A stretch of 64,000 nucleotides of DNA from a bacterium (GCA_028716845.1 JAQUPF010000013.1:890-64889), one strand, 5' to 3'. Numbered from the stretch's first letter, positions 1 through 20,492 are shown. Translations and numbers: made by a program. Notes: a model not told the origin generated them from the letters alone.

Positions 1-318
1 GCAGACGCCGCACCCGACGCAGCGGAGCGGGTCCACCTCGACGCCGCTGATGGCCCCGAAGGCGCACACCTCCTCCCACGAGCCCCCCCGCGCCGGCCCC
101 GACGAGAGGATCCTGGCGAGCGGCGGGCCGCCGACCTCCCGCCGCTCCGTCACGCTCCCCCTGAAGAGGACGTGCAGGTTGGGGGCGTCCGCGTCCGCGT
201 CGACGAGGACCAGCCGCCGGCCGGCGCGCGCGGCGAGGGACGCGAGGGATGCCGCGACGGTCGTCTTTCCCGTCCCCCCCTTGCCGCTCACGATCGCGAT
301 CTGTCGTGGCGCGTTCAT
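1..318 (-). CDS. MinD-superfamily P-loop ATPase with inserted 4Fe-4S ferredoxin domain (COG1149-like); partial, C-terminus runs off window
   Basis: Minus-strand ATG at 316-318 followed by MNAPRQIAIVSGKGGTGKTT (Walker A) and VLVDADADAPNLH. Paralogous to the three downstream ATPases. 4-nt ATGA overlap with the next gene. Confidence 0.75.
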   Translation of the reverse strand, partial: MNAPRQIAIVSGKGGTGKTTVAASLASLAARAGRRLVLVDADADAPNLHVLFRGSVTERREVGGPPLARILSSGPARGGSWEEVCAFGAISGVEVDPLRCVGCGVC

Positions 319-1151
319 CGCGCGTCCGCTCCGATCCGCTCCCGCAGCGCCGAGAAGGCGTCGGCCCATCGCGGCGAGACGTCCACGCACGGCCTGCCGC
401 CGGCCGAGGCCTCCGCGATCTCCCGCGAGAACGGCAGCTCCAGCAGCACCGGGACTCCCCGCTCGGCGCAGAGCGTCCGTATGCCCTCCGCCGGCCCCCG
501 CGCCCTGTTGATGACGACGCCGAGGCGCGCGCCGGTCAGGCGCAGGCCGTCGAGGCCGGCCCGCAGGTCCTCCAGGCCGAAGGGGCTGTCCTCCGTCACG
601 AGGAGGCAGCGGTCGCTCTCCCGCACCGCCTCGAAGACGGGGCGGGTGATCCCCGGCGGGCAGTCGATGACGGCGTGCCGGTCCCCCTTCGCCTTCCCCT
701 TCACCGCCCTGATCACGCGGACGGCCCGCCCGCTCCCGACGACGAGTTCGCCGGTGACCACCTCGATCCCCCCCCTCCCGTCGCCGGTCCAGACCGCCCC
801 CACCACGTGCTCCTCCGCGGCGAGGGAGTGCGGCGGCGCCACCATGAAGCACCCGCCGCATCCCGTGCAGAGCTCCTTGAAGACGAGCAGGGATCCGTTC
901 GCGACGGCGAGGGCGTGGTACGGGCAGAACCGGGCGGCCGGCAGCAGGTCGGCGCGCAGCCAGTCCTTCGCCTTCGGGACGGTGATCGCCACCCGCTCCC
1001 GCTTGCGCCGGGTCGCCCGGAGATAGATGTGACCGTTCGGCTCCTCGACGTCGCAGTCGAGGAACCGGCAGTTCCCCATCGTGATGGCGAGGCTCGTGGC
1101 GACGAGCGTCTTGCCGGCGCCGCCCTTCACGCCCGCGACCGCAATGATCAT
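315..1151 (-). CDS. MinD-superfamily P-loop ATPase with inserted 4Fe-4S ferredoxin domain
   Basis: ORF 278 aa. MIIAVAGVKGGAGKT Walker A, LDCDVEEPN motif, CTGCGGC ferredoxin-type Cys cluster, deviant Walker B CPPG. Confidence 0.85.
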   Translation of the reverse strand: MIIAVAGVKGGAGKTLVATSLAITMGNCRFLDCDVEEPNGHIYLRATRRKRERVAITVPKAKDWLRADLLPAARFCPYHALAVANGSLLVFKELCTGCGGCFMVAPPHSLAAEEHVVGAVWTGDGRGGIEVVTGELVVGSGRAVRVIRAVKGKAKGDRHAVIDCPPGITRPVFEAVRESDRCLLVTEDSPFGLEDLRAGLDGLRLTGARLGVVINRARGPAEGIRTLCAERGVPVLLELPFSREIAEASAGGRPCVDVSPRWADAFSALRERIGADAR

Positions 1152-1155
1152 GCCG

Positions 1156-1527
1156 TTAGGGATTCTGGAGGCCGAAATGCTCCCGCACCGACGGCCCGCT
1201 CAGGAGCGTGAGCTTCCCCTCCCGGAGTTTCTCAAGGGCGCCGCGGACCGTCCCCGCCGCATTGCCGTACACCTTCACGCCGGAGGCCTGGAGCACCCTG
1301 CTCGCGTTCGGACCCATGAAGCCGGTGACGACCGCCTCCACGCCCCTGTCCACGACGGACTGGGCGGCCTGGATGCCCGCCCCGCCGCCTGCCTCGCGGC
1401 CGGGGTTCGCCTGCGCCTCGCACGAGAGCGAGTCCGTGTCGATGAAGAGAAAGTACTGGCAGCGTCCGAACCTCGGGTCGACCATCGCGTCGAGGTCCTG
1501 GCCCTGCGCCGTGACGACGATCTTCAT
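1156..1527 (-). CDS. Dinitrogenase FeMo-cofactor-binding domain protein (NifX/NafY/NifB-C-terminal-like, PF02579-type)
   Basis: 123 aa. MKIVVTAQGQDLDAMVDPRFGRCQYFLFID is the typical N-terminus of FeMo-co carrier domain proteins. Confidence 0.8.
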   Translation of the reverse strand: MKIVVTAQGQDLDAMVDPRFGRCQYFLFIDTDSLSCEAQANPGREAGGGAGIQAAQSVVDRGVEAVVTGFMGPNASRVLQASGVKVYGNAAGTVRGALEKLREGKLTLLSGPSVREHFGLQNP

Positions 1528-1614
1528 GCAATCGCCTCCTCCGTGTGCCGTCGCCGCGCCCTTCCCGCGATCACCGGCCCGCGCGGCGGACGGGCCGGCT
1601 GCTCCCGAACCGCC

Positions 1615-1842
1615 TCAGCCCCTGCGCATCGGCGACCCGCACGAGGGGCACTTCAGGGAATAGCAGGGGACGCCCGCGGTGTGGGGCGCCGTCGCGCCGC
1701 ACGCGGGGCAGACACACTTCCCGCCGGGGCCCGCGCCCGGGATGTTCCCGCCCATGCGCCCCCGTCCGCCGCCCCCGCCGCCTCCTCCCCGGCCCGTGCC
1801 GGGGCCCTGTCCCCTCGGACCCGTTCCATCTCCTCGCGGCAT
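1615..1842 (-). CDS. DUF5320-like small protein (MPRGDGTGP N-terminus, Gly-rich linker, CxCxxC...CxxC C-terminus)
   Basis: ATG at 1840-1842 preceded by a GGAGGTG RBS. 75 aa in frame with the long spurious ORF 1615..3585. Sequence MPRGDGTGPRGQGPGTGRGGGGGGGG...KCVCPACG...CYSLKCPSCG. Confidence 0.7.
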   Translation of the reverse strand: MPRGDGTGPRGQGPGTGRGGGGGGGGRGRMGGNIPGAGPGGKCVCPACGATAPHTAGVPCYSLKCPSCGSPMRRG

Positions 1843-1901
1843 CTCGCTCACCTCCTTCTTCAGATCGGCTGAAAATCCCGACTCCCGCCCCTTCCATGGA
1901 A

Positions 1902-1917
1902 GGCAGATACCATGCCA
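1902..1917 (-). promoter_or_regulatory. Candidate sigma-54 (-24/-12) promoter TGGCATGGTATCTGCC, about 50 nt upstream of the DUF5320 start
   Basis: The minus-strand sequence matches TGGCACG-N4-TTGCW with GG and GC at correct spacing. A sigma-54 enhancer-binding protein is encoded immediately upstream. Confidence 0.45.
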
Positions 1918-2063
1918 TCGCCGGCCCCTCGGCGGTGAATTTATTATTCCATGCCGCGGAGCGGAATGCGATTCATTTCCGGCGGCATCCACTTTCCCCG
2001 GCTTCAGCCGGAGGAGCGTATCCGCACCATCCCTCAGCCGGCCGGTGGTGCGGGAATGCACCG

Positions 2064-3434
2064 CTATCCTCCCTTCCGCCTCCCGTCCCTCCCGGGCAGC
2101 GCGATCCCGAGCGCGTGGATCTTCCGGTAGAGGGTCGTCTTGTGCATGCCGAGCTCCCGGGCCGTGGCGAGCCGGTTCCACCCGTTCCGCTCGAGCGCGT
2201 CCAGTATGAACGAGGCCTCCAGGTCCCTGAGCGAGCGGGCGGGCGCCCGCGCCGGGCGGGCGCCGCGCCGCGCGGCGGCGAGCCCCTCCGGGAGGTGGGC
2301 CGGCGTGATGACCTCCCCGCCGCACAGGACGAACGCCCGCTCGATGATGTTCTCCAGTTCCCGCACGTTCCCGGGGAACGGGTGCGCCAGGAGGAGGGCG
2401 AGCGTCTCGGGCGCGATGCGCGACACGTTCCGCCCCTGCAGCCGGTTGAACCTTTCGATGAAATGCTCCGCGAGGAGCGGGATGTCCTCCGGCCGGTCGC
2501 GGAGCGGCGGGATGACGATGCTGATCACGTTGACCCGGTAGTAGAGGTCCTCGCGGAACCGGCCCTCCCTGACGAGGTCCGCGAGGCGCCGGTTCGTCGC
2601 CGCGATGACGCGGACGTCGGCGCGCGCCGGCCGGACGGAGCCGAGCGGCTCGTACACCTTCTCCTGGAGGACCCGGAGGAGGCGGGACTGGAGGGCGGGG
2701 GAGACGTCGCCGATCTCGTCCAGGAAGATCGTTCCCCCCTCGGCCGCCGCGAAGCGGCCCGGCTTGTCCCGCCGCGCGTCGGTGAACGCCCCCGCCTTGT
2801 AGCCGAAGAGCTCGGACTCGAGGAGGGTGTCGGGGAGGGCGCCGCAGTTCACCGCCACGAGCGGCTTCCCCTTCCGGGGGCTCAGGTGGTGGATGGCCCT
2901 CGCGAACAGCTCCTTCCCCGTCCCGCTCTCCCCCTCGAGGAGGACGGTGGCGCCGCTCCGCGCGATGTCGGGGAGGATCCCCATGATCCGCTGCATCTCC
3001 CTGTTCCCGCTCACGATGTCGAACAGCGTCCGGCGCTTCAGGATCTCCTTCCGGAGCTCCTCGACGACGCTCACGTCGCGGAACGTCTCCACCCCGCCGG
3101 CGATCCGGCCGCGCGCGTCCCTGAGGACCGCCGTCGATATGCTCACGGGGACGCGCCGGCCGCCCGCGTCGATGATGTAGATCGGCCGGGAGACGACCTT
3201 CCGCCCGGTCTCCATCGTGTGCCGGAGGGCGCAGCCGCCCTCGCAGATGCTCGCGCGGAAGACCTCGCTGCAGCGCCGCCCGACCGCCTCGCCGCGCGGC
3301 ACGCCGGTGATCTCCTCCGCCGCCCGGTTGAAGAAGGTGATCCGCCAGTTCCTGTCCACGGTGAAGACGCCGTCGGCGATGCTGTCCAGGATCACCTCGT
3401 TCGGACCGGCCTTCCGTCCGCTCATGGCGCCCAC
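2064..3434 (-). CDS. Sigma-54-dependent transcriptional activator (PAS sensor, AAA+ sigma-54 interaction domain, Fis-type HTH)
   Basis: 456 aa. GESGTGKELFARAIH Walker A, GAFTDA (GAFTGA motif), ESELFGY, C-terminal HTH LGMHKTTLYRKI, N-terminal PAS-like region. Confidence 0.9.
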   Translation of the reverse strand: MGAMSGRKAGPNEVILDSIADGVFTVDRNWRITFFNRAAEEITGVPRGEAVGRRCSEVFRASICEGGCALRHTMETGRKVVSRPIYIIDAGGRRVPVSISTAVLRDARGRIAGGVETFRDVSVVEELRKEILKRRTLFDIVSGNREMQRIMGILPDIARSGATVLLEGESGTGKELFARAIHHLSPRKGKPLVAVNCGALPDTLLESELFGYKAGAFTDARRDKPGRFAAAEGGTIFLDEIGDVSPALQSRLLRVLQEKVYEPLGSVRPARADVRVIAATNRRLADLVREGRFREDLYYRVNVISIVIPPLRDRPEDIPLLAEHFIERFNRLQGRNVSRIAPETLALLLAHPFPGNVRELENIIERAFVLCGGEVITPAHLPEGLAAARRGARPARAPARSLRDLEASFILDALERNGWNRLATARELGMHKTTLYRKIHALGIALPGRDGRRKGG

Positions 3435-4312
3435 CCCGCCTCCGCCCGCAGCCGCTCCCAGGCCCCGCGCACCGCCGCGGCCGCCGCCGATCCGGCGGCC
3501 CGGATGACCGGCTCCCCGCGCGCGAGGGATTCGACGACCGCCCGGTCGTACGGGATCCGGCCGAGGAGGGCGATCGCCCCCTCACGGCAGTACGCCCCGA
3601 TCCGCCCGCTCATCTCCTCGTTGATGTCGAACTTGTTCACGCAGACCGCCGTCCGGATGCCGAAGCGCGCCGCGAGGCCGGCGACGCGCTCGAGGTCGTG
3701 GAGCCCCGACAGCGTCGGCTCCGTCACCGCCACGACGAGGTCGGCGCCGACGATGCTCGAGATGACGGGACAGCCGATCCCCGGCGGGCCATCGATGAGC
3801 ACCGCGCGGAGCCCCCGCTCTTCCGCGAGGCGCACCGCCTCCCGCCGGACCGTGGTGACGAGCTTGCCCGAGTTCTCCTCGGCGATCCCGAGCCGCGCGT
3901 GCGCCATGGGGCCGCACGCCGTCTCCGAGACGTACCATTCCCCGCAGCGCTGCTCCCGCATCTCGATCGCCCCTGCCTCGCACACCCGCGCGCAGAGGCC
4001 GCACCCCTCGCAGGCGAACGCGTCGTAGGCGGGGAGGCCGTTCCGCATCTCGAGTGCCGAGAACCGGCAGCGCTCGGCGCAGCGCCCGCAGCCCGTGCAG
4101 CGCTCCCGGTCGATGACCGGCTTGCGGCCCGACCGGAACTCCTCCGTCCTGAGACGCGTCGGCGCCATGAGGAGGTGGAGGTCGGCGGCGTCCACGTCGC
4201 AGTCGGCGAGGACGCACGGCCTCCCGAGGAGCGCGAAGGAGGCGGTGAGCGTGGTCTTGCCCGTGCCGCCCTTGCCGCTCACGATCGCGATCTGCGTCAC
4301 GCGCGTCTTCAT
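3422..4312 (-). CDS. MinD-superfamily P-loop ATPase with inserted 4Fe-4S ferredoxin domain
   Basis: True start MKTRVTQIAIVSGKGGTGKTT (ATG 4310-4312) inside the longer annotated ORF. CTGCGRC and CEGCGLC ferredoxin motifs. ATGA overlap with the upstream paralog. Confidence 0.85.
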   Translation of the reverse strand: MKTRVTQIAIVSGKGGTGKTTLTASFALLGRPCVLADCDVDAADLHLLMAPTRLRTEEFRSGRKPVIDRERCTGCGRCAERCRFSALEMRNGLPAYDAFACEGCGLCARVCEAGAIEMREQRCGEWYVSETACGPMAHARLGIAEENSGKLVTTVRREAVRLAEERGLRAVLIDGPPGIGCPVISSIVGADLVVAVTEPTLSGLHDLERVAGLAARFGIRTAVCVNKFDINEEMSGRIGAYCREGAIALLGRIPYDRAVVESLARGEPVIRAAGSAAAAAVRGAWERLRAEAGWAP

Positions 4313-5166
4313 CCGGCCCGCCCCCCCCACACGGCCGCCTGCAGGTCCAGGAAGAGGCGCGCGTACGCCTCCCCGGCGCGGAAGGCGGGGATGCCGCGCG
4401 CGTAGTTCGTCGCGATGCGGCGGTCGTGCGGGATCTCGAGGAGGACCGGGATCCCCGCCGCCGCGCAGTAGTCGCGGACCGCGCCGCCGCCGATGTCGGC
4501 CTGGTTGATGACCACCCCCATTGGAACGTCGAGGGCGCGCACCATCTCCACCGCGAGGGCGAGGTCGTTGAGGCCGAACGGCGTCGGCTCGGTGACGAGC
4601 AGGCAGAAGTCGGTCTTCCGCACCGCCTGCACCACCGGGCAGGAGGTCCCCGGCGGGCAGTCGATGATCGTGTCCCCGTCCGGGCGGATCAGTTCCTTCA
4701 CCGCCCGGATGAGCGGCGGCGACATCGCCTCGCCCACCCGGAGCGTCCCGTCGGCGAAAAGGATGCCGTCCGCGGGCCCCCACTCCACGACGCCCGTGAC
4801 GCGCCCCGTCTCGGAGAGGGCGCCCGCCGGGCAGAGGAGCGTGCAGGCCCCGCAGCCGTGGCAGAGCTCCGGAAAGACGAACACCTGCCGCGATTTCCTG
4901 TTCACCATGATCGCGTGGTACGCGCACACCTCGGCGCAGAGGCCGCAGCCGGTGCACTTCGACTCGTCCGCGACGGGGACGGGGACGCGCACCTCCCGGC
5001 GTCCCTCGATCTCGGGCTTCAGGAAGATCCGCGCGTTCGGCTCCTCGACGTCGCAGTCGAGGAAGCGGACGGCGCCCGCGCCGGCGGCGCGGCGGGCGAG
5101 CGCGAGGCTCACCGCCACCGTCGTCTTGCCGGTGCCGCCCTTCCCGCTCGCGACCGAGAGGATCAT
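4309..5166 (-). CDS. MinD-superfamily P-loop ATPase with inserted 4Fe-4S ferredoxin domain
   Basis: True start MILSVASGKGGTGKTT. LDCDVEEPN, CTGCGLC and CHGCGAC motifs. Fourth paralog in the cluster. Confidence 0.85.
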   Translation of the reverse strand: MILSVASGKGGTGKTTVAVSLALARRAAGAGAVRFLDCDVEEPNARIFLKPEIEGRREVRVPVPVADESKCTGCGLCAEVCAYHAIMVNRKSRQVFVFPELCHGCGACTLLCPAGALSETGRVTGVVEWGPADGILFADGTLRVGEAMSPPLIRAVKELIRPDGDTIIDCPPGTSCPVVQAVRKTDFCLLVTEPTPFGLNDLALAVEMVRALDVPMGVVINQADIGGGAVRDYCAAAGIPVLLEIPHDRRIATNYARGIPAFRAGEAYARLFLDLQAAVWGGRAG

Positions 5167-5170
5167 CGTC

Positions 5171-6478
5171 TCACCGCCCCCCGCGCCCCCGGCGCGCGAG
5201 CATCGCGTCGAGGACGATCTCGTTGATGGCATCCATCTCCTCGCTGCTCACCCTGCCGAGGTGCGCGAGCGTCTCCTCGAGCGTCCGCCCCAGCAGGCCG
5301 CCCTCCGGCACGGCGATGCCGCCGCGCGCGGCGAGGATGCCGTGCTCCACCGCGAGGCCCGCGCCGTGGCCGAGCTTGAGCGCGCAGGCGGGCCGCGCCC
5401 CGTCGCAGAGAACGCAGGAGAGCGCGGCGAGCATGGCGTTCGCCGCCGCCGTGATCTCCGCCCGCCCCCCGCCGAGGAGGCATGCGATCCCCGCGGCGGC
5501 GCCGGTGGAGGCGGCGAGGACGCCGCCGCACAGCGCCGACCGCCTCCCGATCGACTCCTTGATGCGCACGTTGAGGAGGTGGCTGAGCGCCGTCGCCCGC
5601 CGGACGGCCCTCCCGTCCGCGATCCCCTCCGCCCGCGCCGCGACGACCACCGGCACGGTGGCGGCGATCCCGCAGTTGCCGCTCCCCCCGCTGCTCATGA
5701 CGGGGAGGGGGACGCCCGCCATCCGCGCCTCGACCGCGGCGGCGGTGAGGGCCGCCGCCTCGAGCGACGCCGTCCGCGGGAGGCAGTCGAGCATCCGCCG
5801 GCCGAGGGAGAGCGGGAGCCGCTCCCGCAGGCCGCGGCGCGCGATCCGCATGTTCATCTCGATGCCGCGCCGGATGAGCGCCTCCTCGCGCGGCCCGAGC
5901 GCCGAGGCCATCTCGAGCATCCCGTCGAGCGTGAGGCGGGAGAAGTCCCGCCCGGCCCCGCCGGCCCCGCCGCCGCCCCGGCGGGCCGCCGGGAGCGGCT
6001 CGCCGTTCACCCTCACGGAGGCGATGTTCGTGTGGAAGCGCCGGATCACCACCTCGGCGGTCCCCCGATCCGTCTCGGCCGTCGCCTTCACGAAGAGGCC
6101 GTCCGGCCTCCTCGTGAGGCGCACCTCCACCCGCCCGTCCCGGACGAGCGCCCGCGCCCGCGCCCGGTCGCGGGCGCCCACCCGGCCGATGACCTCGAGG
6201 CCGCGGCCGGGCCTCCCCGCCGTGTAGCCGAGCGCGGCCGCGATCACGTTGCCCCGGTGCGGGGCGGCCCAGGGGACGCCGACCTCGAGGCCGTTCTTGA
6301 AGGTGTCGCGGTCGACCGCGACGCGGAGCCGCCGCAGCCTCCCGCCGAGCGCCTCGCGGGCGCGGGCGGACGCGAGCGCCACCGCGATCGGCTCCGTGCA
6401 GCCGAGGGCGGGGGCGAGCTCCAGCCGCAGGATGTCGCCGATCCGTCCAGCCGCCGGCGCGCGCCTCATCGACTCCAT
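5171..6478 (-). CDS. L-cysteine desulfidase-like protein (UPF0597/YhaM/CdsB, serine-dehydratase-alpha-like fold)
   Basis: About 435 aa from MESMRRAP. The ALGCTEPIAVALA motif is characteristic of the YhaM family. N-terminal extension of the annotated ORF rejected. Confidence 0.7.
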   Translation of the reverse strand: MESMRRAPAAGRIGDILRLELAPALGCTEPIAVALASARAREALGGRLRRLRVAVDRDTFKNGLEVGVPWAAPHRGNVIAAALGYTAGRPGRGLEVIGRVGARDRARARALVRDGRVEVRLTRRPDGLFVKATAETDRGTAEVVIRRFHTNIASVRVNGEPLPAARRGGGGAGGAGRDFSRLTLDGMLEMASALGPREEALIRRGIEMNMRIARRGLRERLPLSLGRRMLDCLPRTASLEAAALTAAAVEARMAGVPLPVMSSGGSGNCGIAATVPVVVAARAEGIADGRAVRRATALSHLLNVRIKESIGRRSALCGGVLAASTGAAAGIACLLGGGRAEITAAANAMLAALSCVLCDGARPACALKLGHGAGLAVEHGILAARGGIAVPEGGLLGRTLEETLAHLGRVSSEEMDAINEIVLDAMLARRGRGGR

Positions 6479-6780
6479 GGCGGCCCTCCCCGCATCGTGT
6501 AGACGCCGCCCTCGATGTGGATCGCGCAGCCGTCCACGATCGCCCGGGCGACCTTCCGCCGCGCCTCCGAGAGGATGCGGCCGAAGGTCTGCCGGGAGAC
6601 GCCCATGAGCGGCGCCGCCTCCTCCTGCCCCTTCCCCTCGGCGTCCGCGAGGCGGAGCGCCTCCATCTCGTCCATGGTGAGGTGGATCTCCGTCAGGTCG
6701 GTCATCGGTATCCCCCGCGGCTTGAAGAAGTACGCGCCGGGGACGCCGTTCACGAACCGGCATTTCTTGGGTCTGGGCAT
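6466..6780 (-). CDS. DUF134/UPF0251 family putative DNA-binding regulator
   Basis: 104 aa. MPRPKKCRFV N-terminus and LTMDEMEALRLADAEG...QEEAA..MGVSRQTFGRIL sigma-70-region-4-like HTH. Confidence 0.85.
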   Translation of the reverse strand: MPRPKKCRFVNGVPGAYFFKPRGIPMTDLTEIHLTMDEMEALRLADAEGKGQEEAAPLMGVSRQTFGRILSEARRKVARAIVDGCAIHIEGGVYTMRGGPPWSR

Positions 6781-6794
6781 CGCTTCCCTCTATT

Positions 6795-6810
6795 ATGAGC
6801 ATACGCTCAT
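6795..6810. promoter_or_regulatory. Perfect 6-4-6 palindrome ATGAGCATACGCTCAT just upstream of the DUF134 RBS
   Basis: Seen directly. Lies 15-30 nt upstream of the DUF134 start codon, at the edge of a 370-bp AT-richer intergenic region. Confidence 0.4.
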
Positions 6811-6988
6811 TACATCGGGATGTCAAAAGGAAAATGCAATGAAACAATTCACCACGGATTGGCGCCGATCATTACGGATCCGCGCGGATCCGAATTCCAC
6901 CTACGAGGTGGCCTTGGAAGGGGCTGAATATACTGCAACAAAGAGTGCCTAGGCGATCATTATAATGTAGGCAGTGGACAAAAGCAGT

Positions 6989-7029
6989 ATGGGGTCAGAC
7001 CTTCACTATTAACCAAGGCAGGAGCGCCC
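6989..7029. repeat. Copy 1 of a near-identical 41-nt element ATGGGGTCAGAYCTTCACTATTAACYAAGGC... (second copy at 20147-20188)
   Basis: 38/41 identity between the two loci 13 kb apart. Both copies are followed about 60-70 nt later by a GATACGGRNTGCGAACGRCG motif. Confidence 0.7.
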
Positions 7030-7152
7030 AAGCGCCGAATCGCACGAGTGCTCCGACCGCTCATCGCCCAATCGCCGATTAAACCGCGAGATACGGAATG
7101 CGAACGACGAACTGCGTTTACAGGATCCGCGTTCATCCGCGGCTGGACCTCG

Positions 7153-7440
7153 CTACGGCCGCCTCTTCGCGATGGCGGCGACGCCCGCGGCGGCGGCGAA
7201 CGTCAGGAGCGTCCCCAGGGCGCCGGCGGCCGCGGTGGCGAGCCCCTCCCGCCCGACGCCGGGCATGGCGTAATCGGGGACGGGCGCGGCGAGCGCCGGC
7301 TCCCCCTCGCCCCTGTGGAGGAATCCCTTGTCCTCCGCGACCCGCTCGAGGCCGTCCGGGCGCGGCGAGGCGAACGGCGAGAGGAAGACCGCAAGCACCA
7401 TCGAAACGGCGAGACCGGCGAGAACCGTCCGTCTGTCCAT
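7153..7440 (-). CDS. cbiN: PDGLE-domain small membrane protein (CbiN-like ECF transporter accessory component)
   Basis: 95 aa from MDRRTVLAGLAVSMVLAVF. PDGLE motif and two terminal TM segments. Immediately downstream of cbiM. Confidence 0.65.
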   Translation of the reverse strand: MDRRTVLAGLAVSMVLAVFLSPFASPRPDGLERVAEDKGFLHRGEGEPALAAPVPDYAMPGVGREGLATAAAGALGTLLTFAAAAGVAAIAKRRP

Positions 7441-7442
7441 GT

Positions 7443-8081
7443 TCAGCCCCTCCCCCCCTCGTAGATGAGATCCGGCCGCACCGCGAGGACGAAGGAGAGG
7501 ACGAGGCAGGTGATGACGGCCTCCCCGACGCCGATGAGCGCGTGGACGGCGAGCATGGCGGGGAGCACGACCCGGAGAGGGGAGGTGCCCGACAGGGCGA
7601 GCTGCAGCGCGCAGGCCGCGCTCGCGAGGACCACGGAGCACCACGCCGCGACGGCCGCCGCCGTCAGGATCCGCCCCCGCTCGCGGGACGATCCCCGCGC
7701 CGCCGCGTAGATGAAGTAGGCGAGCGCCGCCCCGATGAACGCCATGTTCACCACGTTCGCCCCGAGGGCGGTGAGGCCGCCGTCCTGGAACACGAGGCAC
7801 TGCACGATGAGGACGACGGCGATCACCGCGACCGCGCACGCCGGCCCGAGGAGCACCGCCGCGAGCGCCCCGCCGATCAGGTGGCCCGAGGTGCCGCCGG
7901 CGACGGGGAAGTTCAGCATCTGCGCCGCGAAGATGAAGGCGGCCATCACCCCCATGAGCGGCACCGCCCTGTCCTTGAGGGCGCGGCCCGCCGCGCCGAG
8001 CGCCCACCAGAGGCCCCCTGCACCCGCGATCCAGAGCGGGCCCCAGACCCGCGCCGCGAGAAAACCGTCAGGTATGTGCAT
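7443..8081 (-). CDS. cbiM: CbiM/NikM substrate-capture component of a cobalt/nickel ECF transporter
   Basis: 212 aa. Canonical MHIPDGFL N-terminus. Polytopic. GGAGGAG RBS. Confidence 0.85.
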   Translation of the reverse strand: MHIPDGFLAARVWGPLWIAGAGGLWWALGAAGRALKDRAVPLMGVMAAFIFAAQMLNFPVAGGTSGHLIGGALAAVLLGPACAVAVIAVVLIVQCLVFQDGGLTALGANVVNMAFIGAALAYFIYAAARGSSRERGRILTAAAVAAWCSVVLASAACALQLALSGTSPLRVVLPAMLAVHALIGVGEAVITCLVLSFVLAVRPDLIYEGGRG

Positions 8082-8131
8082 CGCTCCTCCCCCCTTGCCT
8101 GAATGACCGCAATGTCCCTCTCTCAAACGAT

Positions 8132-8152
8132 GTACGACGTACGATGTACGCC
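8132..8152. repeat. Heptamer tandem repeat GTACGAN x3 between the outer-membrane protein gene and cbiM
   Basis: GTACGACGTACGATGTACGCC. A related GTACGAT GTACGAA GTACGAT GGACGAA array overlaps the tatD start at 57734-57761. Confidence 0.6.
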
Positions 8153-8203
8153 CCACGAGCTGCCCCGCCGGCGATGGACGATGTAGGCACGACGATGTGC
8201 GAG

Positions 8204-9106
8204 TCAGAACTCCATCGTCAGCACCAGCCCGGCCCACGGGACGATGTTCTCGAAGAGGCGCGCCCCGTCCTCGTCCTCCATCCGGGTGAGGCTCTTCGTG
8301 AAGTGGAGGAGGCCCGTCACGACGAAGTGGTGGTTCAGCGGGACGCTCAGGTCGAGCCCCCAGTCGATATGGGTGAGCGTCGTCCGGTCGATGTACTTGT
8401 GTGAGTTCATCCCGAGCGCCATGGAGGGGGTGAAGACGGCGAGCTTCTCGCCGCCCCACCGGAGCGGCACGTTGTGCGAGATGCCCCACTCGAGGTAGGA
8501 GCCCCTCCCCTTGTCGTAATCGTAGTTCCAGAGGAACCGGGGGTTGAGCGGCAGGTCGGCGCAGACCTCGACGCCGAGCTCGCCCGTGTCCCGCCACTCC
8601 TCCTCCTCGGGGTAGCGGATGTACGTCCAGCTCGGGGCCACGGAGAGCACCTTCCAGCCGAGGGGGAGATAGATGGTGAAATCACGCTCGACCGTGCTCG
8701 GCCCGGGGACCGCCCCGGTCGTGTCGATCTGGAAATACTCGAACCCCACGCCGGCGCTGAACGGCCCGAACTCCCGCGCGTACTCGGCGGAGTACACCTG
8801 CTGGATCTGGAGGCCGCGGCGGGCGCCGTTGGCCCCCTCGTCCAGCCAGTCGCTCAGGAAGGCGCTCTGGACGTTGAACTTGATGGGGGAGATCTCGCCC
8901 GCGCGGTCGAGGACCCTGTTCATCGCCGCGAGCGGCGGGACGCGGTTCTGGAGGAAGAGCTCCTCCGGCTCCTCCGCGATCTCCTCCATCTCGCGTTCGA
9001 TGAGGGGCGCCCTCGGCTCGGCGTCGGTGACGAGCTGTCCCCGCCCGGCCCCGGGCAGCGCCGCGATGCATAGAATGAGGAGCCCCGCCGCGTGTCGTCC
9101 GGTCAT
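8204..9106 (-). CDS. Outer-membrane beta-barrel (porin-like) protein with signal peptide
   Basis: About 300 aa from MTGRHAAGLLILCIAALPGAG. C-terminal ...LVLTMEF ending in Phe (OMP signature), alternating amphipathic strands. CAGGAGG RBS. The annotated ORF extends spuriously upstream. Confidence 0.65.
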   Translation of the reverse strand: MTGRHAAGLLILCIAALPGAGRGQLVTDAEPRAPLIEREMEEIAEEPEELFLQNRVPPLAAMNRVLDRAGEISPIKFNVQSAFLSDWLDEGANGARRGLQIQQVYSAEYAREFGPFSAGVGFEYFQIDTTGAVPGPSTVERDFTIYLPLGWKVLSVAPSWTYIRYPEEEEWRDTGELGVEVCADLPLNPRFLWNYDYDKGRGSYLEWGISHNVPLRWGGEKLAVFTPSMALGMNSHKYIDRTTLTHIDWGLDLSVPLNHHFVVTGLLHFTKSLTRMEDEDGARLFENIVPWAGLVLTMEF

Positions 9107-9198
9107 CGCCCCCTCCTGGAGTAGCACGATTTTCAGAATGGTAGCACTTCTCCGGCCGGGCGCAAGAAAAAATGATATTTTTCGCGCCGCCCCCGGCG

Positions 9199-10230
9199 TC
9201 AGAATCCCGCCGCGAGGGCGATGAAGCCGACGAGGAGGGCCGCGGCGACCTTCGCCGCCTTCACCCAGACGAAATCCCGCACGCTCGCCGACAGGAGCGG
9301 CAGCATCCCGTGGCCGTCCTGCGAGATGGAGCTCGCCAGGAGCACCGAGAACGGGACGAGGCCGCGCGCGTACATGAGGACGAAGACGAGGTGCGGCCCC
9401 GACTCGGGGATGAAGCCGAGGAGGACGGCGACCGGCAGGACCCAGGCGGTGCGTGCCCCGATGAACGCCTCGAGGTCCCACCGCTCCGAGAGGAAGTGGA
9501 TGGCGAGCATCGTCCCGAGGACCCAGAGGAAGATCCGCCAGAGGTGCTCCTTCGCGAGGTGCTCCCAGAGGTGTTCCTCGAGGTAGTGGTCCGGGACCGT
9601 GACGGCGATGAAGGCGGCCGCGACCAGGAGGAGGATGAGCGTCGTCGTGACCCAGGCCGCCTCCCCGTGCCCGCCGCCTGCGAGCGCGCTCGAGAGGAAG
9701 ATGGCGATGATGAGGAAGATGCAGAAGCGGGCGAGCGACGGCCGCCGGAGGTTGCGCGCCGCGTCGGCGACCGAGAGCCGGCAGCAGTGCTCCTCGTGGA
9801 AGGCGAGACGGTCGCAGCCGTCGCAGGGGACGAGCCCCGCCGCCCCCGCCGCCCGGTCGCTCAGCCACCCCCAGGCGGCGCCGAGGACGAACAGGATGCC
9901 GAAGAGGGCGAGGGCCCTGCCGGGGAAGAGGGCGAGCATGACGAACGCCTCGTCCCCCGAGGTGGCGAGCATGCAGGCGACGAGCGCCCCGAACGAGAGC
10001 ATCCGGTGGATGTAGAGCGAGGTGACGGCGAACGCCCCGAGGCAGCCGGGGGTCGCCCCGAGGAGCGCGGCCCCGACGTACTGGCGCGTCCCCCCGCGCC
10101 TGAGGATCGCCCCGAGCCGGCCCCGGCTGAGGACGTTCGCGTAGTCCACGATCGTCATCATCGCGAAGACGAAGGCGGAGACGAGGATCGCGTGCCGGAC
10201 GAGCTCCCCGATGGTGGCCTCGTGGTGCAT
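9199..10230 (-). CDS. Polytopic membrane protein with Cys/His-rich cytoplasmic motifs (CDGCD, HEEHCC, EEHLWEHLAKEHLW), putative metal-ion permease
   Basis: About 343 aa from MHHEATIGELV. Multiple hydrophobic segments. Family not confidently recognised. Confidence 0.6.
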   Translation of the reverse strand: MHHEATIGELVRHAILVSAFVFAMMTIVDYANVLSRGRLGAILRRGGTRQYVGAALLGATPGCLGAFAVTSLYIHRMLSFGALVACMLATSGDEAFVMLALFPGRALALFGILFVLGAAWGWLSDRAAGAAGLVPCDGCDRLAFHEEHCCRLSVADAARNLRRPSLARFCIFLIIAIFLSSALAGGGHGEAAWVTTTLILLLVAAAFIAVTVPDHYLEEHLWEHLAKEHLWRIFLWVLGTMLAIHFLSERWDLEAFIGARTAWVLPVAVLLGFIPESGPHLVFVLMYARGLVPFSVLLASSISQDGHGMLPLLSASVRDFVWVKAAKVAAALLVGFIALAAGF

Positions 10231-10238
10231 GGCGGCCC

Positions 10239-11120
10239 TCAGGCGGACGCCGCGGCGGGGGGCGGCGCGGAGGTGACGAGGAACGAGCCGACCGCCACGC
10301 CGAGTTCCCGCGCGATCACGGGGCACTTCGCGCGGAGGAGGAAGAAGATCCGCTTGCCGCCGACGCCGCTCAGCGACTCGTAGTTCCCCTGCCCCTTCGC
10401 GATGACGATGTCCGCGCGCCGGAACGCCGCGCGGAAATCGTCCGCGCACTCCTCGAGGATGACCCCCGGCGCGGCGTGGCCGGTCGAGACGACCCGGGCG
10501 ACCTCGTCCATCCGCACGCGCTCGGCGTCGCGGAGGGTGACGTCGTTGATGATGGGGCCGCCGCGCACGGCGAAGGTCCGCTCGAGGGCGGGGTGGAGCG
10601 CGCCGATCGTCTCGAGGAGCAGCTTGTCGAAGACAATCTCGCCGGCGTTGTCGCCGACGTAGAGGAGGCGCCTGGACGAGGCGAGCGCCGCCTCGAGCGC
10701 CGCGCTCTCGTCGACCTGGAACCCCTTCTCGAGGACGGAGCGGAGGGAGTCCATCAGGTCGAACTTCACCCCGATGCCGAAATCCACGATGTTGGCGGCC
10801 ACCGCCAGGCGGAGCGCCGTGCCGAGGGGGGAGGGGGATTTCGCGACCGTCTCCTTCGCCCAGCCCCAGCACTCGAGCGCCGTCCCGTCGCTCCGCTCCT
10901 TCGCCTGGAGGTACGGGTCGGCGCAGCCGGTGACCTTCTCCACCGCCGCGTACACCATGCTCGCGATGAGCGGCGGGGTCATCCCGAGGTCGATCCGCGA
11001 GAGGATCCGGTGGACGCGCCTGAGGACCCGGGCGTGCACGTCGTCGTCGTTGCTGACGAGCCGCGAGACGTCAAGCGCCTGCCGGATGAAGCAGGCCTGG
11101 CACTCGAGGGAGCTCCTCAT
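10239..11120 (-). CDS. DUF89 (ARMT1-like damage-control phosphatase) family protein
   Basis: 293 aa. N-terminal MRSSLECQACFIRQ is the characteristic DUF89 CxxC..RQ start. Confidence 0.7.
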   Translation of the reverse strand: MRSSLECQACFIRQALDVSRLVSNDDDVHARVLRRVHRILSRIDLGMTPPLIASMVYAAVEKVTGCADPYLQAKERSDGTALECWGWAKETVAKSPSPLGTALRLAVAANIVDFGIGVKFDLMDSLRSVLEKGFQVDESAALEAALASSRRLLYVGDNAGEIVFDKLLLETIGALHPALERTFAVRGGPIINDVTLRDAERVRMDEVARVVSTGHAAPGVILEECADDFRAAFRRADIVIAKGQGNYESLSGVGGKRIFFLLRAKCPVIARELGVAVGSFLVTSAPPPAAASA

Positions 11121-11440
11121 CGGGGGGCGCGCCCCCCGCGGAGCCGTGCCCGAACCGACTCGACCTTCCCCGCCGCCGTCAGGGGGGCGTCGCGCCGGTC
11201 GTCGATCCTGATGCTCGTGACGACGCGCGGGGCCCCCGCCGCGACGACCGCGCGGTGGAGGTCGAGCGCCGCCTCGAGGAGGCGCTCGACGCTCCCCGCC
11301 TCGACGATCGTCCCCATGGCGGTGAGCTCCCAGCGGAGGTCGTCCCTCCCCTCGAGCGCCGCCACCGCGCGCGCGACGTAGTCGCCGACCGACGCCGTCG
11401 CCGTCCCGATCGGGACGACGCTGATCTCCATGATCGGCAT
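11117..11440 (-). CDS. MTH1187/YkoF-family (DUF77) small ligand-binding protein
   Basis: 107 aa from MPIMEISVVPIGTATASVGDYVA. GGAGGAGG RBS. The annotated ORF has a spurious Arg/Ser-rich N-terminal extension. Confidence 0.7.
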   Translation of the reverse strand: MPIMEISVVPIGTATASVGDYVARAVAALEGRDDLRWELTAMGTIVEAGSVERLLEAALDLHRAVVAAGAPRVVTSIRIDDRRDAPLTAAGKVESVRARLRGGRAPR

Positions 11441-11462
11441 GGCCGCCTCCTCCCGCGTTCCT

Positions 11463-11834
11463 TCAGGGCGCCGCCGGCGCCCCCGCGAGCTCCGCCTCCT
11501 CCTGCTGGAGGTGGGCGAGCTCGGCGTCGATCGCCGCGATCTCCTCGGGGGTCGTGTTCTCCTCCGCGGCCGCCCGCCGCTCCTCGAGGACCCGGATCCT
11601 GTCCCGGACGAGGACGAGGCGCCCCGTGAGCGCCGTCCCCGGCTCCGGCGTGGGCGTGGGCGGCGGCCGCTCCGCCGTCTCCTGCGCGTGCGCGCGCCGG
11701 TCCGGGATGCCTCGCTGCTCCATCGCGTCCTCGATCTCCTCCCGGATGCGGAAGTCATCGTCGGCGTCCCGCGCGGGGGCGCGGACCGGCGCGGCGGCGC
11801 AGGCGAGCGCCGCGATGAGCGCGAGCGTCTTCAT
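11463..11834 (-). CDS. Small secreted coiled-coil hypothetical protein
   Basis: 123 aa from MKTLALIAALACAAAPVRA (signal peptide). Acidic, helical. Confidence 0.5.
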   Translation of the reverse strand: MKTLALIAALACAAAPVRAPARDADDDFRIREEIEDAMEQRGIPDRRAHAQETAERPPPTPTPEPGTALTGRLVLVRDRIRVLEERRAAAEENTTPEEIAAIDAELAHLQQEEAELAGAPAAP

Positions 11835-11969
11835 GTCGGCCCCCTTCCCCTCCCGCCCGCGGCCGCGCCCGGGAAGCGGTGTTGAGCGCGCGGGCGGCTG
11901 ACGGTAGAATGTGATGATTGCAGAACGGCCTTCGGCTGTCAACCGCGCACGCCGGCCCGATGCGGCAAT

Positions 11970-12012
11970 CGACCGCGGATCCAAACGGTGACCCGCGGAT
12001 CAACGCGGATCG
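11970..12012. repeat. Dispersed intergenic repeat (CACGGAT/ATCCGYG 10-bp-phased family), degenerate copy
   Basis: GACCGCGGATCCAAACGGTGACCCGCGGATCAACGCGGATCGG. Confidence 0.6.
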
Positions 12013-12165
12013 GGCTCCGGTTCAGAGCTGCAGTAGGATCCGCGGTGAGCGTTTCATTATCTATAGCATGTATGACTTACAACCGGCTCCAGGCCAGTGT
12101 CGATCCGTCATGATCCGTACATATCCGTGGCTGGTCGTGCATGATCGCCGGGGGGGCGCGACGGC

Positions 12166-14541
12166 ATGATCGCCTTCGCCGCCGTCCCGCTCCTCCTCCT
12201 CGTCCCAGGCGTCCTCCTCGTCCGGGCCGCGGCCCGGGGCACGCCGCCCGCGCGCGCCCCCCTCAGGCGCGCCTGGCTCCAGGCGGTCGTCGCGAGCATG
12301 GCCGTCTCCTCCTGGGCGGGCCTCCTGCTCCTCGAGTGCGGCGCCTTCGGCCTCGGCGCGCTCTCGCTCGCGCTCGCGGCCTTCTCGATCGCCCTCCTCC
12401 TCGTCTTCCGGCCGCCCCTCCGCGGCCGGCGCGGGGGAGGGGAGCGGGCCGGCGGCGCGCTGCCGCTCGCGCTCGTCGCGGCCGCCTTCCTCCTCGCCTG
12501 CGCGGCGGGCGGCGTCTCCGAGCACGTCTTCGGCGGCTGGGATTCCGGCGAATACGTCGGCATGGGCGCCCTCTTCGCCGACCGGGGGCGCATCGTCTAC
12601 CGCGACGAGTTCTTCGCCTCCGTCCCCGAGGATTCCCGCGACCTCTTCACGCAGGAGGGGCGCCGCTACATGGGCTTCAACCTCCTCAGCCTGCCCGGCG
12701 CGGTCGTGAGCCCGAAGTTCATGCACGTCTACCCGATGTGGCTCGCCCTCGCCTCGAGGATCGCCGGCCCCCGCGCGGCCCTCGCGGCGAACATCCTCTT
12801 CTCGCTCCTCTCGATCGCCCTCTGCTGGCGGATCGCCCTCCGGCTCTACGGCCGCGCCGCCGCCGCCGTGTCCGCCGCCGTCATGGCCTTGAGCCCGCTC
12901 CTCCTCTGGTTCGGCCGCATGCAGTGCGCCGAGCCGCTCGCCGCCCTCTTCTTCCTCGGCTGCGTCTACTTCTGGGTCCTCTGGCGGCAGGGGGGCGGCC
13001 CCTCGCGCGCCGGCCTCTCCGCCGCCTGCGCCGGGATGATGTTCCTCGTGAAATTCGACGCCCTCATCGTCCTCCCCGCCCTCCTCCTCGCCCTCGCCCT
13101 CGCCGGGCGGATCCGGGGCGTCCGCGTCTTCGCCCTCGCGCTCGCCGCCGCCCTCGTCCATCTGGCCGTCCACCTCGCCTGGTGGGACCGGCCGTACCTG
13201 AAGGCGGTCTCCGACAACCTCCCGGGCGGGCCGTGGGCGTTCGCCGCCGCCGGAGCGCTCCTCGCGCTCGCCCTCATCGCCGGCCGGCGCGTCAGGGCGG
13301 CCTGTCTCGCCCTCGGCGTCCTGCCCCGGCTCGCCGTCGCCCTCTTCCTCCTCGCCGCCTTCGTCTTCCTCCTCTACGTCCGGCCGGCGGTGAGCGCCTC
13401 GCCGGAGGCGGAGAACCTCCCCGGCCTCGCCATGATCGCCGGCGACGGTATCCTCTGGTGGGCCCTCGCGGGCGCCCTCGTCGCCTGGCTCCGCGGCCTC
13501 CGCGACGACGAGCTCCCCCTCTGGCTCGCCGGCCTCGCCGCCGGCGCCTTCTTCTCCCTCACGCTCGCCGGCGAGCGCCACCTCTACCCCTGGTCCGCCC
13601 GCCGCTTCCTCCCGGTCGTCGTCCCCGCCGCCGCCGTCTTCGCCGGCCTCTTCACCGCCTCGCTCCGCCGCCTGCTCCCGCGGCCGTGGGCGCTCCTCCC
13701 CGGCGCCGGCCTCGCCCTCCTCCTCGCCCTGCCGCTCGCCCGCTTCCCGTACCTCGCCGCCGCCCGCGACTACCCCGGCGCCCTCGCCTTCGTCGGCCGC
13801 CTCGGCGAGGCGACCCGGCCGTACGACGTCCTCGTCTGCGAGCAGGTGCGGCTCGCCGTCCCGCTCGACTTCCTCTGCCGCCGGAACGTCCTCCTCTTCA
13901 AGGAGGACGGGCAGACTCCGGAGGCGTGCGCGCGCGTCGAGGCGCTCGTCGCCCGCTGGCTCGACGAGGGGCGGCGCGTCGCCTACGTCACCTCGGGCCC
14001 CGCGATCCACGGCGCCCGGATCGGCTTCGCGCGGGCGGGGACGGTCCCCCTCCGCTCCTCCGCCGTCCCGCTCGTCCGCCGCGGGATGCCCGCCGGCCCC
14101 GCGCCGTTCTCCATGGACGGAGCCGTCCTCGAGGCGGTGCCGCTCGAGCGGTGGGAGCCGCCGGCCGGCGATCTCGTCTTCGAGATCGGCTTCAACTCGT
14201 TCGGCCTCGGGGAGGGCTTCGGCGGCCCCCGCCGCTTCGGCCGCCGGGGGGTGGGCCGCTGGACAGCCCCGGAGGCATCGCTTATAATCCCGTGGTTCGA
14301 GGACGGCGCGGGGCGGATCGAATTCGCACTCTCGACCGGCTCGCCGTCGGGCGGTCCCGTCCCCGTCGAGGTCGCCGTCGAGGGGGAGACGGTCGGCCGG
14401 TTCGAGGCGGCGGGGCTCCTCCGGGACTACGCGGTCGCCGTCCCGCCGGGAACGGGCGCCGGCATGCGGCGCGTCCGCCTCCGGATCAACGCCCCCCGGG
14501 GCGTTTTCCTGGACAAGGTGAGGATCGCCCGCCTGCCCTGA
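12166..14541 (+). CDS. GT-C-fold integral membrane glycosyltransferase-like protein (PMT/ArnT/family-39-like), paralog A
   Basis: 791 aa. About 11-13 TM helices in the N-terminal two-thirds, large C-terminal soluble domain. Paralogous to 15643..18177; both N-termini read VPLLLLVPGVLLVRAA. Confidence 0.65.
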   Translation: MIAFAAVPLLLLVPGVLLVRAAARGTPPARAPLRRAWLQAVVASMAVSSWAGLLLLECGAFGLGALSLALAAFSIALLLVFRPPLRGRRGGGERAGGALPLALVAAAFLLACAAGGVSEHVFGGWDSGEYVGMGALFADRGRIVYRDEFFASVPEDSRDLFTQEGRRYMGFNLLSLPGAVVSPKFMHVYPMWLALASRIAGPRAALAANILFSLLSIALCWRIALRLYGRAAAAVSAAVMALSPLLLWFGRMQCAEPLAALFFLGCVYFWVLWRQGGGPSRAGLSAACAGMMFLVKFDALIVLPALLLALALAGRIRGVRVFALALAAALVHLAVHLAWWDRPYLKAVSDNLPGGPWAFAAAGALLALALIAGRRVRAACLALGVLPRLAVALFLLAAFVFLLYVRPAVSASPEAENLPGLAMIAGDGILWWALAGALVAWLRGLRDDELPLWLAGLAAGAFFSLTLAGERHLYPWSARRFLPVVVPAAAVFAGLFTASLRRLLPRPWALLPGAGLALLLALPLARFPYLAAARDYPGALAFVGRLGEATRPYDVLVCEQVRLAVPLDFLCRRNVLLFKEDGQTPEACARVEALVARWLDEGRRVAYVTSGPAIHGARIGFARAGTVPLRSSAVPLVRRGMPAGPAPFSMDGAVLEAVPLERWEPPAGDLVFEIGFNSFGLGEGFGGPRRFGRRGVGRWTAPEASLIIPWFEDGAGRIEFALSTGSPSGGPVPVEVAVEGETVGRFEAAGLLRDYAVAVPPGTGAGMRRVRLRINAPRGVFLDKVRIARLP

Positions 14542-14566
14542 GCGCGGCCGGCGGCGGCAGAAACGC

Positions 14567-20455: not shown

Positions 20456-20459
20456 ATAT

Positions 20460-20492
20460 GGCCTTGGGCTCCAGCCCAAGGCCATTCATTTT
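20460..20492 (+). terminator. Hairpin GGCCTTGGG-CTCCAG-CCCAAGGCC followed by a T-rich tract, directly after the tRNA
   Basis: 9-bp GC-rich stem followed by ATTCATTTTC. Confidence 0.5.

Follow-up and report, generated by a model that had tools for sequence, protein, structure and literature searches.

The stretch analysed here, 64,000 nucleotides of contig JAQUPF010000013.1 (positions 890 to 64889; assembly GCA_028716845.1) and referred to below as the window, begins with a run of genes resembling the orp and orpR genes of the ORange Protein complex (ORP) cluster of Desulfovibrio vulgaris Hildenborough. The founding work on that cluster is reportedly that of Fievet in 2011. Because the GC content is about 73% across the window, long spurious open reading frames (ORFs) are frequent all over it. 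Genes were called from the third-codon-position GC (GC3) frame plot, and their starts were refined by ribosome-binding context and start/stop overlaps. Over positions 1..12000, this analysis resolved 16 genes (g1 to g16) within 1-11834, all lying on the minus strand in one run. Pfam and NCBIfam scans, used to assign the products to protein families, recovered nearly all of the domains that an original prediction, made by a model from the sequence alone, had listed for this co-directional run. The 4-nt overlaps described there as prevailing were found at 5 of the 15 gene junctions; such start/stop overlaps indicate translational coupling. Contigs of the independent Logan assembly, built from public read archives, matched window positions 5035..12101 without a difference.

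The ORP cluster of D. vulgaris Hildenborough (DVU2103-2109) comprises the operon orp5-orp4-orp3, the regulatory gene orpR (DVU2106) and the operon orp7-orp8-orp9; published work covers the regulator OrpR, the control exerted through sigma-54 and integration host factor (IHF), the Fe-S carrier MrpORP and the complexes obtained in pull-downs (PMC3897727, PMC6345978, PMC8359166). The paralogous ATPases Orp3 and Orp4 carry two [4Fe-4S] ferredoxin motifs, and Orp5 has a small [2Fe-2S] protein as its homologue. The orange protein itself, holding a [S2MoS2CuS2MoS2]3- cluster non-covalently, is Orp8, and MrpORP is Orp9 (PMC8359166, PMC3897727, PMC6345978).

Gene g5 (2064..3425), resolved by Pfam into a PAS domain, an AAA+ sigma-54 activator domain and an HTH_8 domain, is the orpR counterpart in the window. 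Its ATG at 3425, which is also the start chosen by NCBI (P0001), overlaps the stop codon of g6 in the sequence ATGA. Counted from this ATG, the PAS domain carries Cys52, Glu54, Cys61 and Cys65, in a numbering identical to that of OrpR, a sensor of redox potential whose PAS domain binds a [4Fe-4S] cluster on C52, C61 and C65 and conserves an Asp or Glu at position 54 (PMC8359166). The sigma-54 contact loop reads GAFTDA, an unusual variant listed for DVU2106 (PMC4641369). The Cys/acidic signature was found in 85 of 87 relatives.

A candidate sigma-54 -24/-12 promoter, TGGCATGGTATCTGCC, lies between orpR and g4 (1917..1902, minus strand), 60 nt upstream of g4. It has the correct GG-N10-GC spacing and matches the consensus at 9 of 12 positions, and a sigma-54 element is found downstream of orpR in 32 of 39 related loci. 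Sites with GCATTCC at 2061..2046 (GGTGCATTCCCGCACC) and 1971..1955 make the interval 1955..2061 (minus strand) a candidate enhancer region for OrpR; this heptamer occurs four times in the 64 kb, three of them within the cluster's two intergenic regions. At many loci of relatives outside Desulfovibrio, paired TTGCA-N3/4-TGCAA palindromes occupy the space from orpR to the downstream sigma-54 promoter (for example L035:11373-11418, L051:11368-11412, L053:7417-7462 and L074:11338-11383). These palindromes probably represent the OrpR enhancer outside Desulfovibrio, and the GCATTCC sites, which resemble them, are the candidates for that role in the window.

Scanning for the sigma-70 consensus returned three sites, against 0.3 expected in shuffles, and two of the three stand exactly at operon heads on the minus strand. 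TTGACA-17-TATGCT (6826..6798; 10/12) precedes g9, the DUF134 gene, and TTGACA-17-AATCAT (11942..11914) precedes the upstream transporter operon. About 50 nt upstream of the -35 element of the former lies a perfect 18-bp palindrome, CGGATCCGCGCGGATCCG (6875..6892, minus strand), for which the DUF134 protein and OrpR are possible ligands. The same intergenic region contains a sigma-54 near-miss, TAGGCAC-N6-TTGCA (6934-6951, minus strand), whose GG-N11-GC spacing is one base too long; with GCATTCC at 7101 lying some 150 nt upstream of it, this may be a second promoter dependent on OrpR that is atypical or has decayed. The placement of both the sigma-54 and the sigma-70-like promoters suggests that the run is divided into three likely transcription units: g16 to g10, with the transporters, DUF89 and their neighbours; g9-g8-g7-g6-g5, tightly coupled and driven by sigma-70; and g4-g3-g2-g1 onwards, driven by sigma-54 and OrpR.

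The second gene of the OrpR-driven unit, g3 (1156..1527), encodes an ORP/Orp8 homologue, a single-domain protein of the NifX fold (PF02579, 81.5 bits). Its closest PDB entry is the D. gigas ORP, 2WFB (E 2.8e-20, full-length); full-length alignments with this protein and with the NifX-fold singletons MTH1175 and TM1290 span E values from 2.8e-20 to 7.4e-18. As known here from sequence alone, g3 is like these proteins in size (about 120 aa) and in having no Cys ligands. It is 74% identical to the ORP of a related locus, L084, and the entry annotated as 'probable NifB protein', 1O13, matches it at E 9e-6. The fold (IPR003731/PF02579) is also that of NifX, NafY, NifB and the thioferrate store IssA, all binding anionic metal-sulfide species (PMC5524996). 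Since the PF02579 domain is common to ORP, IssA and MTH1175, it is not diagnostic of nitrogenase maturation, and the 'nitrogenase-style' label of the original prediction derives from the Pfam name only: among solved structures, the nearest relative is the orange protein, which binds Mo/Cu sulfide. The window differs from the nitrogenase systems in having no radical-SAM NifB domain, NifEN or NifHDK, and g3 differs from IssA in that its sequence lacks the cationic tail.

Upstream of g3, g4 (1615..1842) encodes a small Gly/Arg-rich protein with the pattern CxCPxCG...H...PC...CPxCG, the Cys and His residues of which are invariant in at least 26 related ORP loci. It is a candidate for an Orp5-type small Fe-S protein, assigned by pattern and context and not by the sequence of DVU2105 or Dde_3197. 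A small Gly/Cys protein had been foreseen at this place as a member of DUF5320; the protein is there, but the DUF5320 model scores 17 bits where Pfam asks for 27, and it covers the Gly-rich N-terminus only (MPRGDGTGP motif).

Four genes encode P-loop ATPases. The products of g7 (4309..5166; Pfam ParA/CbiA and two Fer4 stretches) and g6 (3422..4312; Pfam CbiA and two Fer4 stretches) each contain an intact 2x[4Fe-4S] ferredoxin insert and so present the feature described for Orp3 and Orp4, two paralogous ATPases with two [4Fe-4S] ferredoxin motifs each. They belong to two orthologous types, A1 (g7 and g2) and A2 (g6 and g1), which in other genomes always form an ordered tandem pair: g7 is 64-69% identical to the first-in-pair ATPases of loci L002, L084 and L086, and g6 is 64-67% identical to the second-in-pair ATPases of the same loci. 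The product of g2 (315..1151; Pfam CbiA/ParA/LdpA_Fe-S-bd), with the Walker A sequence GVKGGAGKT, is a divergent A1-type protein, its top 12 matches being all of this type at no more than 40% identity. What the window holds of g1 (<1..318), cut by its edge, is the N-terminal 106 aa of an A2-type (Orp3/4-like) ATPase (Pfam CbiA/ParA and the start of Fer4), with second-in-pair ATPases of related loci as best matches. In the alignment, both proteins lack the CxxCxxCxxxC motif that comes first in the ferredoxin insert; a single CxxCxxC motif remains in g2, and g1 keeps CVGCGVC. The four ferredoxin-bearing ATPases of the original prediction are accordingly all present, two of them without the first Fe-S motif. 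Judged from these alignments, the ATPase pair is duplicated, g2 and g1 being a second, degenerate A1/A2 pair.

The deviant Walker A sequence (KGG-x-GK[ST]) and the Fe-S context are shared with the Mrp/NBP35/ApbC proteins, including MrpORP (NF041136). The four ATPases could on this ground be viewed as generic Mrp/ApbC-type Fe-S carriers placed by chance among unrelated genes, and they do give partial matches to Pfam ParA (NUBPL) and to the NCBIfam ApbC and MrpORP models. The NCBIfam matches, however, are confined to the N-terminal P-loop and reach 37-49 bits against cut-offs of 348-450; the alignments contain no Mrp-type CXXC bridging motif outside the ferredoxin insert, which in the window proteins follows the P-loop; and the two ATPase types stand as an ordered pair by ORP and OrpR across many phyla, whereas randomly scattered carriers would have refuted the original prediction. 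Generic Mrp/ApbC carriers were rejected on the combination of sub-cut-off scores, missing CXXC and conserved ordered-pair synteny, and a chance juxtaposition appears extremely improbable.

The unit ending in orpR opens with g9 (6466..6780), a DUF134 helix-turn-helix protein (Pfam, 86.7 bits) and the first gene of a DUF134-cyuA-A1-A2-orpR operon. The second gene, g8 (5171..6478; alternative start at 6469; Pfam SDH_alpha), encodes a CyuA-type [4Fe-4S] L-cysteine desulfidase. With these two, the DUF134 protein, desulfidase, PF02579 protein and PAS-sigma-54 activator that had been predicted were all recovered by Pfam. The match of the g8 protein to the CyuA structures 9HE0 and 9FSL, from Methanococcus maripaludis, is full-length. 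Relative to 9HE0, it conserves GCTE, CGG and CDGxxxxCALKL. In common with the CyuA/YhaM/MJ1025 group, the catalytic dyad and [4Fe-4S] ligands of which have been defined (PMC12647591), it has both dyad residues (Cys and Glu), all three cysteines that bind the cluster, and the Asn and Lys in the active site. By these residues, g8 is predicted to be catalytically intact. It differs from that group in lying within an ORP operon and not beside a cysteine importer or its regulator.

The desulfidase is divergent: only two database proteins, P0122 (58%) and P0123 (55%), exceed 42% identity with it. The genes for both lie directly upstream of an A1-A2 ATPase pair. The gene order is CyuA-A1-A2-Orp5-like-NifX-like-MBL-ORP in locus L084 and CyuA-A1-A2-Orp5-like in L086. 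More distant CyuA homologues stand in ordinary catabolic contexts with no ORP genes, and a metagenome scan with CyuA returned two distant relatives only (28-34% identity), neither of them in an ORP context. A sulfur-donor role for CyuA in anaerobes lacking cysteine desulfurase was proposed in a 2025 study (PMC12647591). From this proposal and from the embedding of the gene in the operon, we infer that in this sub-lineage CyuA may supply sulfide to the ORP machinery. A bolder version takes the order CyuA-A1-A2-Orp5-ORP, found here and in two other high-GC lineages, as a self-contained line in which the desulfidase would feed sulfide or cluster-bound hydrosulfide to the ATPases, and these would assemble an anionic metal-sulfide cluster on the orange protein or transfer it there. 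We put this forward very tentatively and think it rather unlikely to be correct; were it true, it would disclose what the ORP system does biochemically, a question of long standing, and explain the lack of the donor in the sulfide-producing Desulfovibrio.

The distribution of the module was examined through a genome scan anchored on g5. Its best 80 loci (L003-L082; 57-67% identity), among which D. vulgaris does not figure, were combined with L001 and L002, two metagenomic contigs that each encode a close homologue of OrpR. Counts are given over these 82 loci, many of which are incomplete contigs, and gene content was established by tblastn and ORF clustering. The metagenome-assembled genomes containing the scan loci are labelled Syntrophales, Desulfobacterales, Planctomycetota, Gemmatimonadota, Krumholzibacteriota, Zixibacteria, KSB1, Calditrichota, NC10 and Verrucomicrobiota. 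An ORP gene was found in 46 loci, the ATPase pair in 39, DUF89 in 10, DUF134, adjoining orpR, in 7-8 and ArsP_2 in 3-4; CyuA, CbiM, PDGLE, the YkoF-like protein, g12 and g16 were each found in none. In the 38 loci that extend for at least 6 kb in either direction, ORP is present in 23 and is accompanied by at least two ATPases in 18. This recurrence indicates that the module is conserved, not scattered. The original prediction was right in seeing here a metal-sulfur module that is conserved, is transcribed together and includes a protein of the NifX fold. A co-directional layout is the rule among the 80 loci. OrpR has seemed restricted to delta-proteobacteria (PMC8359166); as far as sequence tells, activators of its type (C52-[D/E]54-C61-C65, mostly with GAFTDA) accompanied by ORP modules extend beyond that range.

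Several families that are not in the window recur in the related loci. A second NifX-like protein, whose cationic Arg/Gly tail recalls IssA, occurs in 58 of them and canonical DUF5320 in 38; a scaffold of the IscU/NifU kind was counted in 36, a protein of the MBL fold in 19, a radical-SAM protein in 17 and a ModC-like ATPase in 6. Examples of recurrent families are found at L074:11500-11901 (c3), L020:12833-13306 (c9) and L077:4536-5678 (c28). DUF89, the 'damage-control phosphatase', lies inside ORP operons in its 10 loci, mainly in Planctomycetota and Gemmatimonadota (L004, L005, L033, L035, L051, L055, L074 and others).

The partners in these loci bear on two views of what the complex does. 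The original prediction spoke of an orphan nitrogenase-cofactor-like pathway, assembling and trafficking a complex Fe-S (or Fe-S-heterometal) cofactor for a client elsewhere; this is a functional reading of ORP and not an alternative identity. It draws on the capacity of the PF02579 fold to carry anionic metal-sulfide species in NifB, NifX, NafY, IssA and ORP (PMC5524996), on the transfer of Fe-S clusters from MrpORP to Orp3/4 in vitro (PMC8359166, PMC3897727, PMC6345978), on the IscU/NifU-like, radical-SAM and ModC-like genes of the ORP loci and on the CyuA gene embedded in the window cluster. Yet, as the prediction itself had remarked, no nitrogenase is in view: neither nitrogenase, NifB/EN, NifH/NifDK nor Mo/W enzymes are among the genes called in the 64-kb window, its remaining 52 kb (12-64 kb) included, so that no canonical nitrogenase or other client with maturation genes was met there. 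Moreover, no client is steadily linked to the module in the 80 loci, the Desulfovibrio OrpR regulon consists of the orp operons only (PMC8359166, PMC3897727, PMC6345978), and the published phenotypes concern cell morphology and not the loss of an enzyme activity (PMC8359166). The idea of metal-sulfur cofactor handling survives as one functional hypothesis because the literature has not settled the biochemical role of ORP (PMC8359166); in its nitrogenase-like form we regard it as conceivable, though on the unlikely side.

The other view, taken from the literature, makes of ORP a MinD-like positioning or cell-division system, with the ATPases as anaerobe-specific polar or septal factors. The ATPases do belong to the MinD/ParA superfamily, as seen in partial matches to NCBIfam minD_arch and minD_bact and in the MinD structures returned by a PDB search; in Desulfovibrio, inactivation of OrpR leads to morphological defects and MrpORP is polar (PMC8359166, PMC3897727, PMC6345978). 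The NCBIfam matches, however, score 57-68 bits against MinD cut-offs of about 200-213, and the redox-active ferredoxin inserts, the NifX-fold partner and CyuA point to metal-sulfur chemistry, as do the IscU-like, radical-SAM, ModC-like and DUF89 partners of the related loci, which favour such chemistry over the cell-division idea. In a hydrophobic-moment test for a MinD-like amphipathic C-terminal helix, the reference peptide scored below the query tails. Overall, a MinD-like role seems improbable.

Upstream of the DUF134 operon, the neighbouring genes start with g10 (7153..7440), a PDGLE/CbiN-like gene whose product scores below the NCBIfam CbiN cut-offs, and g11 (7443..8081), encoding CbiM (Pfam, 206 bits). 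Of the CbiM/CbiN importer proposed for this place, CbiM has a strong Pfam match and the partner is a PDGLE protein, and neither CbiQ nor CbiO was found in the 64 kb; g10 and g11 would form the substrate module of a Co/Ni energy-coupling-factor (ECF) transporter alone. They are followed by g12 (8204..9106), the putative outer-membrane protein that the original prediction called porin-like, which is a secreted 300-aa protein with a signal peptide and the C-terminus ...LTMEF, which has no Pfam match and gave a single-sequence AlphaFold2 model with a pLDDT (predicted local distance difference test) score of 31; by g13 (9199..10230), an ArsP_2 permease rich in Cys (7) and His (14), among them the motifs CDGC and HEEHC; by g14 (10239..11120), a DUF89 phosphatase; by g15 (11117..11440), an MTH1187/YkoF-family protein; and by g16 (11463..11834), a small secreted protein. 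Pfam and NCBIfam agree with the earlier description of g13, g14 and g15 as a Cys/His-rich permease, a DUF89 protein and a YkoF-like protein. As to the metal-handling genes said to accompany the cluster, DUF89 and ArsP_2 recur in related loci, whereas the others, as counted above, do not; a link of CbiM and PDGLE to ORP is not supported.

The neighbours also enter into a third view of the system, as a store or detoxifier of metal sulfide (thiomolybdate/Cu or thioferrate) on NifX-fold proteins, with ArsP_2 and CbiM serving metal flux and CyuA providing sulfide. Within one and the same fold, ORP holds its Mo/Cu-sulfide cluster non-covalently and IssA stores thioferrate (PMC5524996); the recurrence of ArsP_2 and DUF89 in ORP loci, the ModC-like gene in 6 of them and the cationic Gly/Arg-rich region of g4 would fit this view. 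Set against it are the lack in g3 of the tail that defines IssA, the failure of CbiM/PDGLE, the YkoF-like protein and g12 to be conserved with ORP, and the location of the transporters in a separate transcription unit with its own promoter. We consider storage or detoxification to be a doubtful explanation, of low probability.

Taken as a whole, the core of the run (1..6780) is very probably an ORP-type cluster homologous to the orp/orpR genes of D. vulgaris Hildenborough, an identity that best explains the sequence homology and preserved motifs, the arrangement of the genes, the promoter elements and the recurrence among other genomes reported above. It shares with the Desulfovibrio cluster the sigma-54 activator of PAS type (C52/C61/C65, acidic residue 54 and GAFTDA), the orange protein made of a single PF02579 domain, a pair of paralogous P-loop ATPases with 2x[4Fe-4S] and the sigma-54 promoter next to orpR; it also has a small Cys-rich protein, the Orp5 candidate, and orpR itself is apparently expressed from a sigma-70-type promoter, as in Desulfovibrio. 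It departs from the Desulfovibrio cluster in the place of orpR, which closes an operon and is coupled in translation to an ATPase gene, in the presence of four ATPases, the second pair degenerate, and of an embedded CyuA desulfidase, and in its host, a 73% GC bacterium that looks PVC-like and is not a sulfate reducer.

A number of points weigh against this identity. The match to DVU2103-2109 was drawn from published descriptions and not from direct sequence comparison. The window genes are co-directional, whereas those of Desulfovibrio form two divergent operons. The Desulfovibrio OrpR enhancer palindrome, GGGCGYRTTTTGCGCCC, has no match in the window at up to 3 mismatches, which leaves the GCATTCC sites as mere candidates, and no sigma-54 promoter with correct spacing was found ahead of the DUF134 operon. 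MrpORP/Orp9, a fusion of Mrp/NBP35 and Di-Nase, has no counterpart in the window, where NF041136 gives no more than 48.6 bits (cut-off 450); the window edge cuts off the left end of the cluster, and Orp9 could sit just beyond, the source contig running on for at most 2.3 kb outside the window, both ends counted. ORP genes are missing from 9 of the 38 full-flank loci with OrpR-like proteins, which makes the bond between regulator and module less than strict. The linkage of CyuA is known from just three lineages, and the unsettled biochemical role of the ORP complex is itself a difficulty. For all these points, the ORP identity remains the best explanation, and it contradicts the assertion that the system is undescribed, since the cluster corresponds to the named one of D. 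vulgaris Hildenborough (PMC8359166, PMC3897727, PMC6345978). In sum, what the original prediction observed is confirmed, and its interpretation is partly supported.

The rest of the window carries housekeeping and cell-envelope functions (SecA, RF2, LysRS, CysRS, MetRS, a ClpC-like protein, RadA, HolB and glycosyltransferases). The host SecA has about ten relatives at 76-80% identity, after which values fall to 61% or less; the named sequences at that level come from Verrucomicrobia, Chlamydiae and Kiritimatiellae. Because the closest named relatives of SecA are from this group, the host looks, on sequence, like an unclassified lineage akin to the Planctomycetes-Verrucomicrobia-Chlamydiae (PVC) group. 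Diverging in transcription from the cluster, two large PMT_2-type glycosyltransferase genes (791 and 844 aa) flank a GT4 glycosyltransferase gene at 12166-18177 (plus strand). Further on, at 20379-25500, a tRNA-Met gene (20379-20455, plus strand) is followed by a stretch with just 55-60% GC, against about 73% for the genome, which encodes a 1041-aa beta-propeller (Lactonase/YNCE-like) protein (21604-24729) and may be an integrated island. An rRNA operon as the source of the low GC at 20-26 kb was ruled out, as Rfam finds two tRNAs only in the window. A 989-aa protein with PLD-like and lamin-tail domains and an atypical codon-position GC (GC1 0.53) is encoded within 30170-33525, in a region of 63-64% GC adjoining tRNA-Phe (33450-33525).

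Control by redox state, formation of the complex, donation of sulfide and the eventual physiological role are inferred, and the following model combines them. The sigma-70-type promoter at 6826..6798 would drive the coupled operon for DUF134, CyuA, A1, A2 and OrpR. Through a redox-sensitive [4Fe-4S] cluster on Cys52, Cys61 and Cys65 of its PAS domain, OrpR would at low redox potential activate the sigma-54 promoter at 1917..1902, from which the small Cys-rich Fe-S protein, the orange protein and the degenerate A1/A2 pair would be expressed. The orange protein would act as a NifX-fold carrier of a non-covalent anionic metal-sulfide cluster and, as in Desulfovibrio, would form a complex with the ferredoxin-insert ATPases and the small Fe-S protein. 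The embedded CyuA-type desulfidase would provide cysteine-derived sulfide for the Fe-S or thiometallate clusters of this complex; presumably a sulfate reducer would have such sulfide for free and need no donor.

The cluster is not an undescribed system and opens no new category of system; it is a variant of the known, poorly understood ORP system, one of the few conserved 'anaerobe-specific' modules, in which some 15 years of genetic study have found no biochemical function. It places the ORP module far outside the sulfate reducers, with Fe-S redox regulator and sigma-54 logic unchanged, and the linkage to CyuA in a rare sub-lineage offers the testable hypothesis that sulfide supply may be part of the work of the complex.

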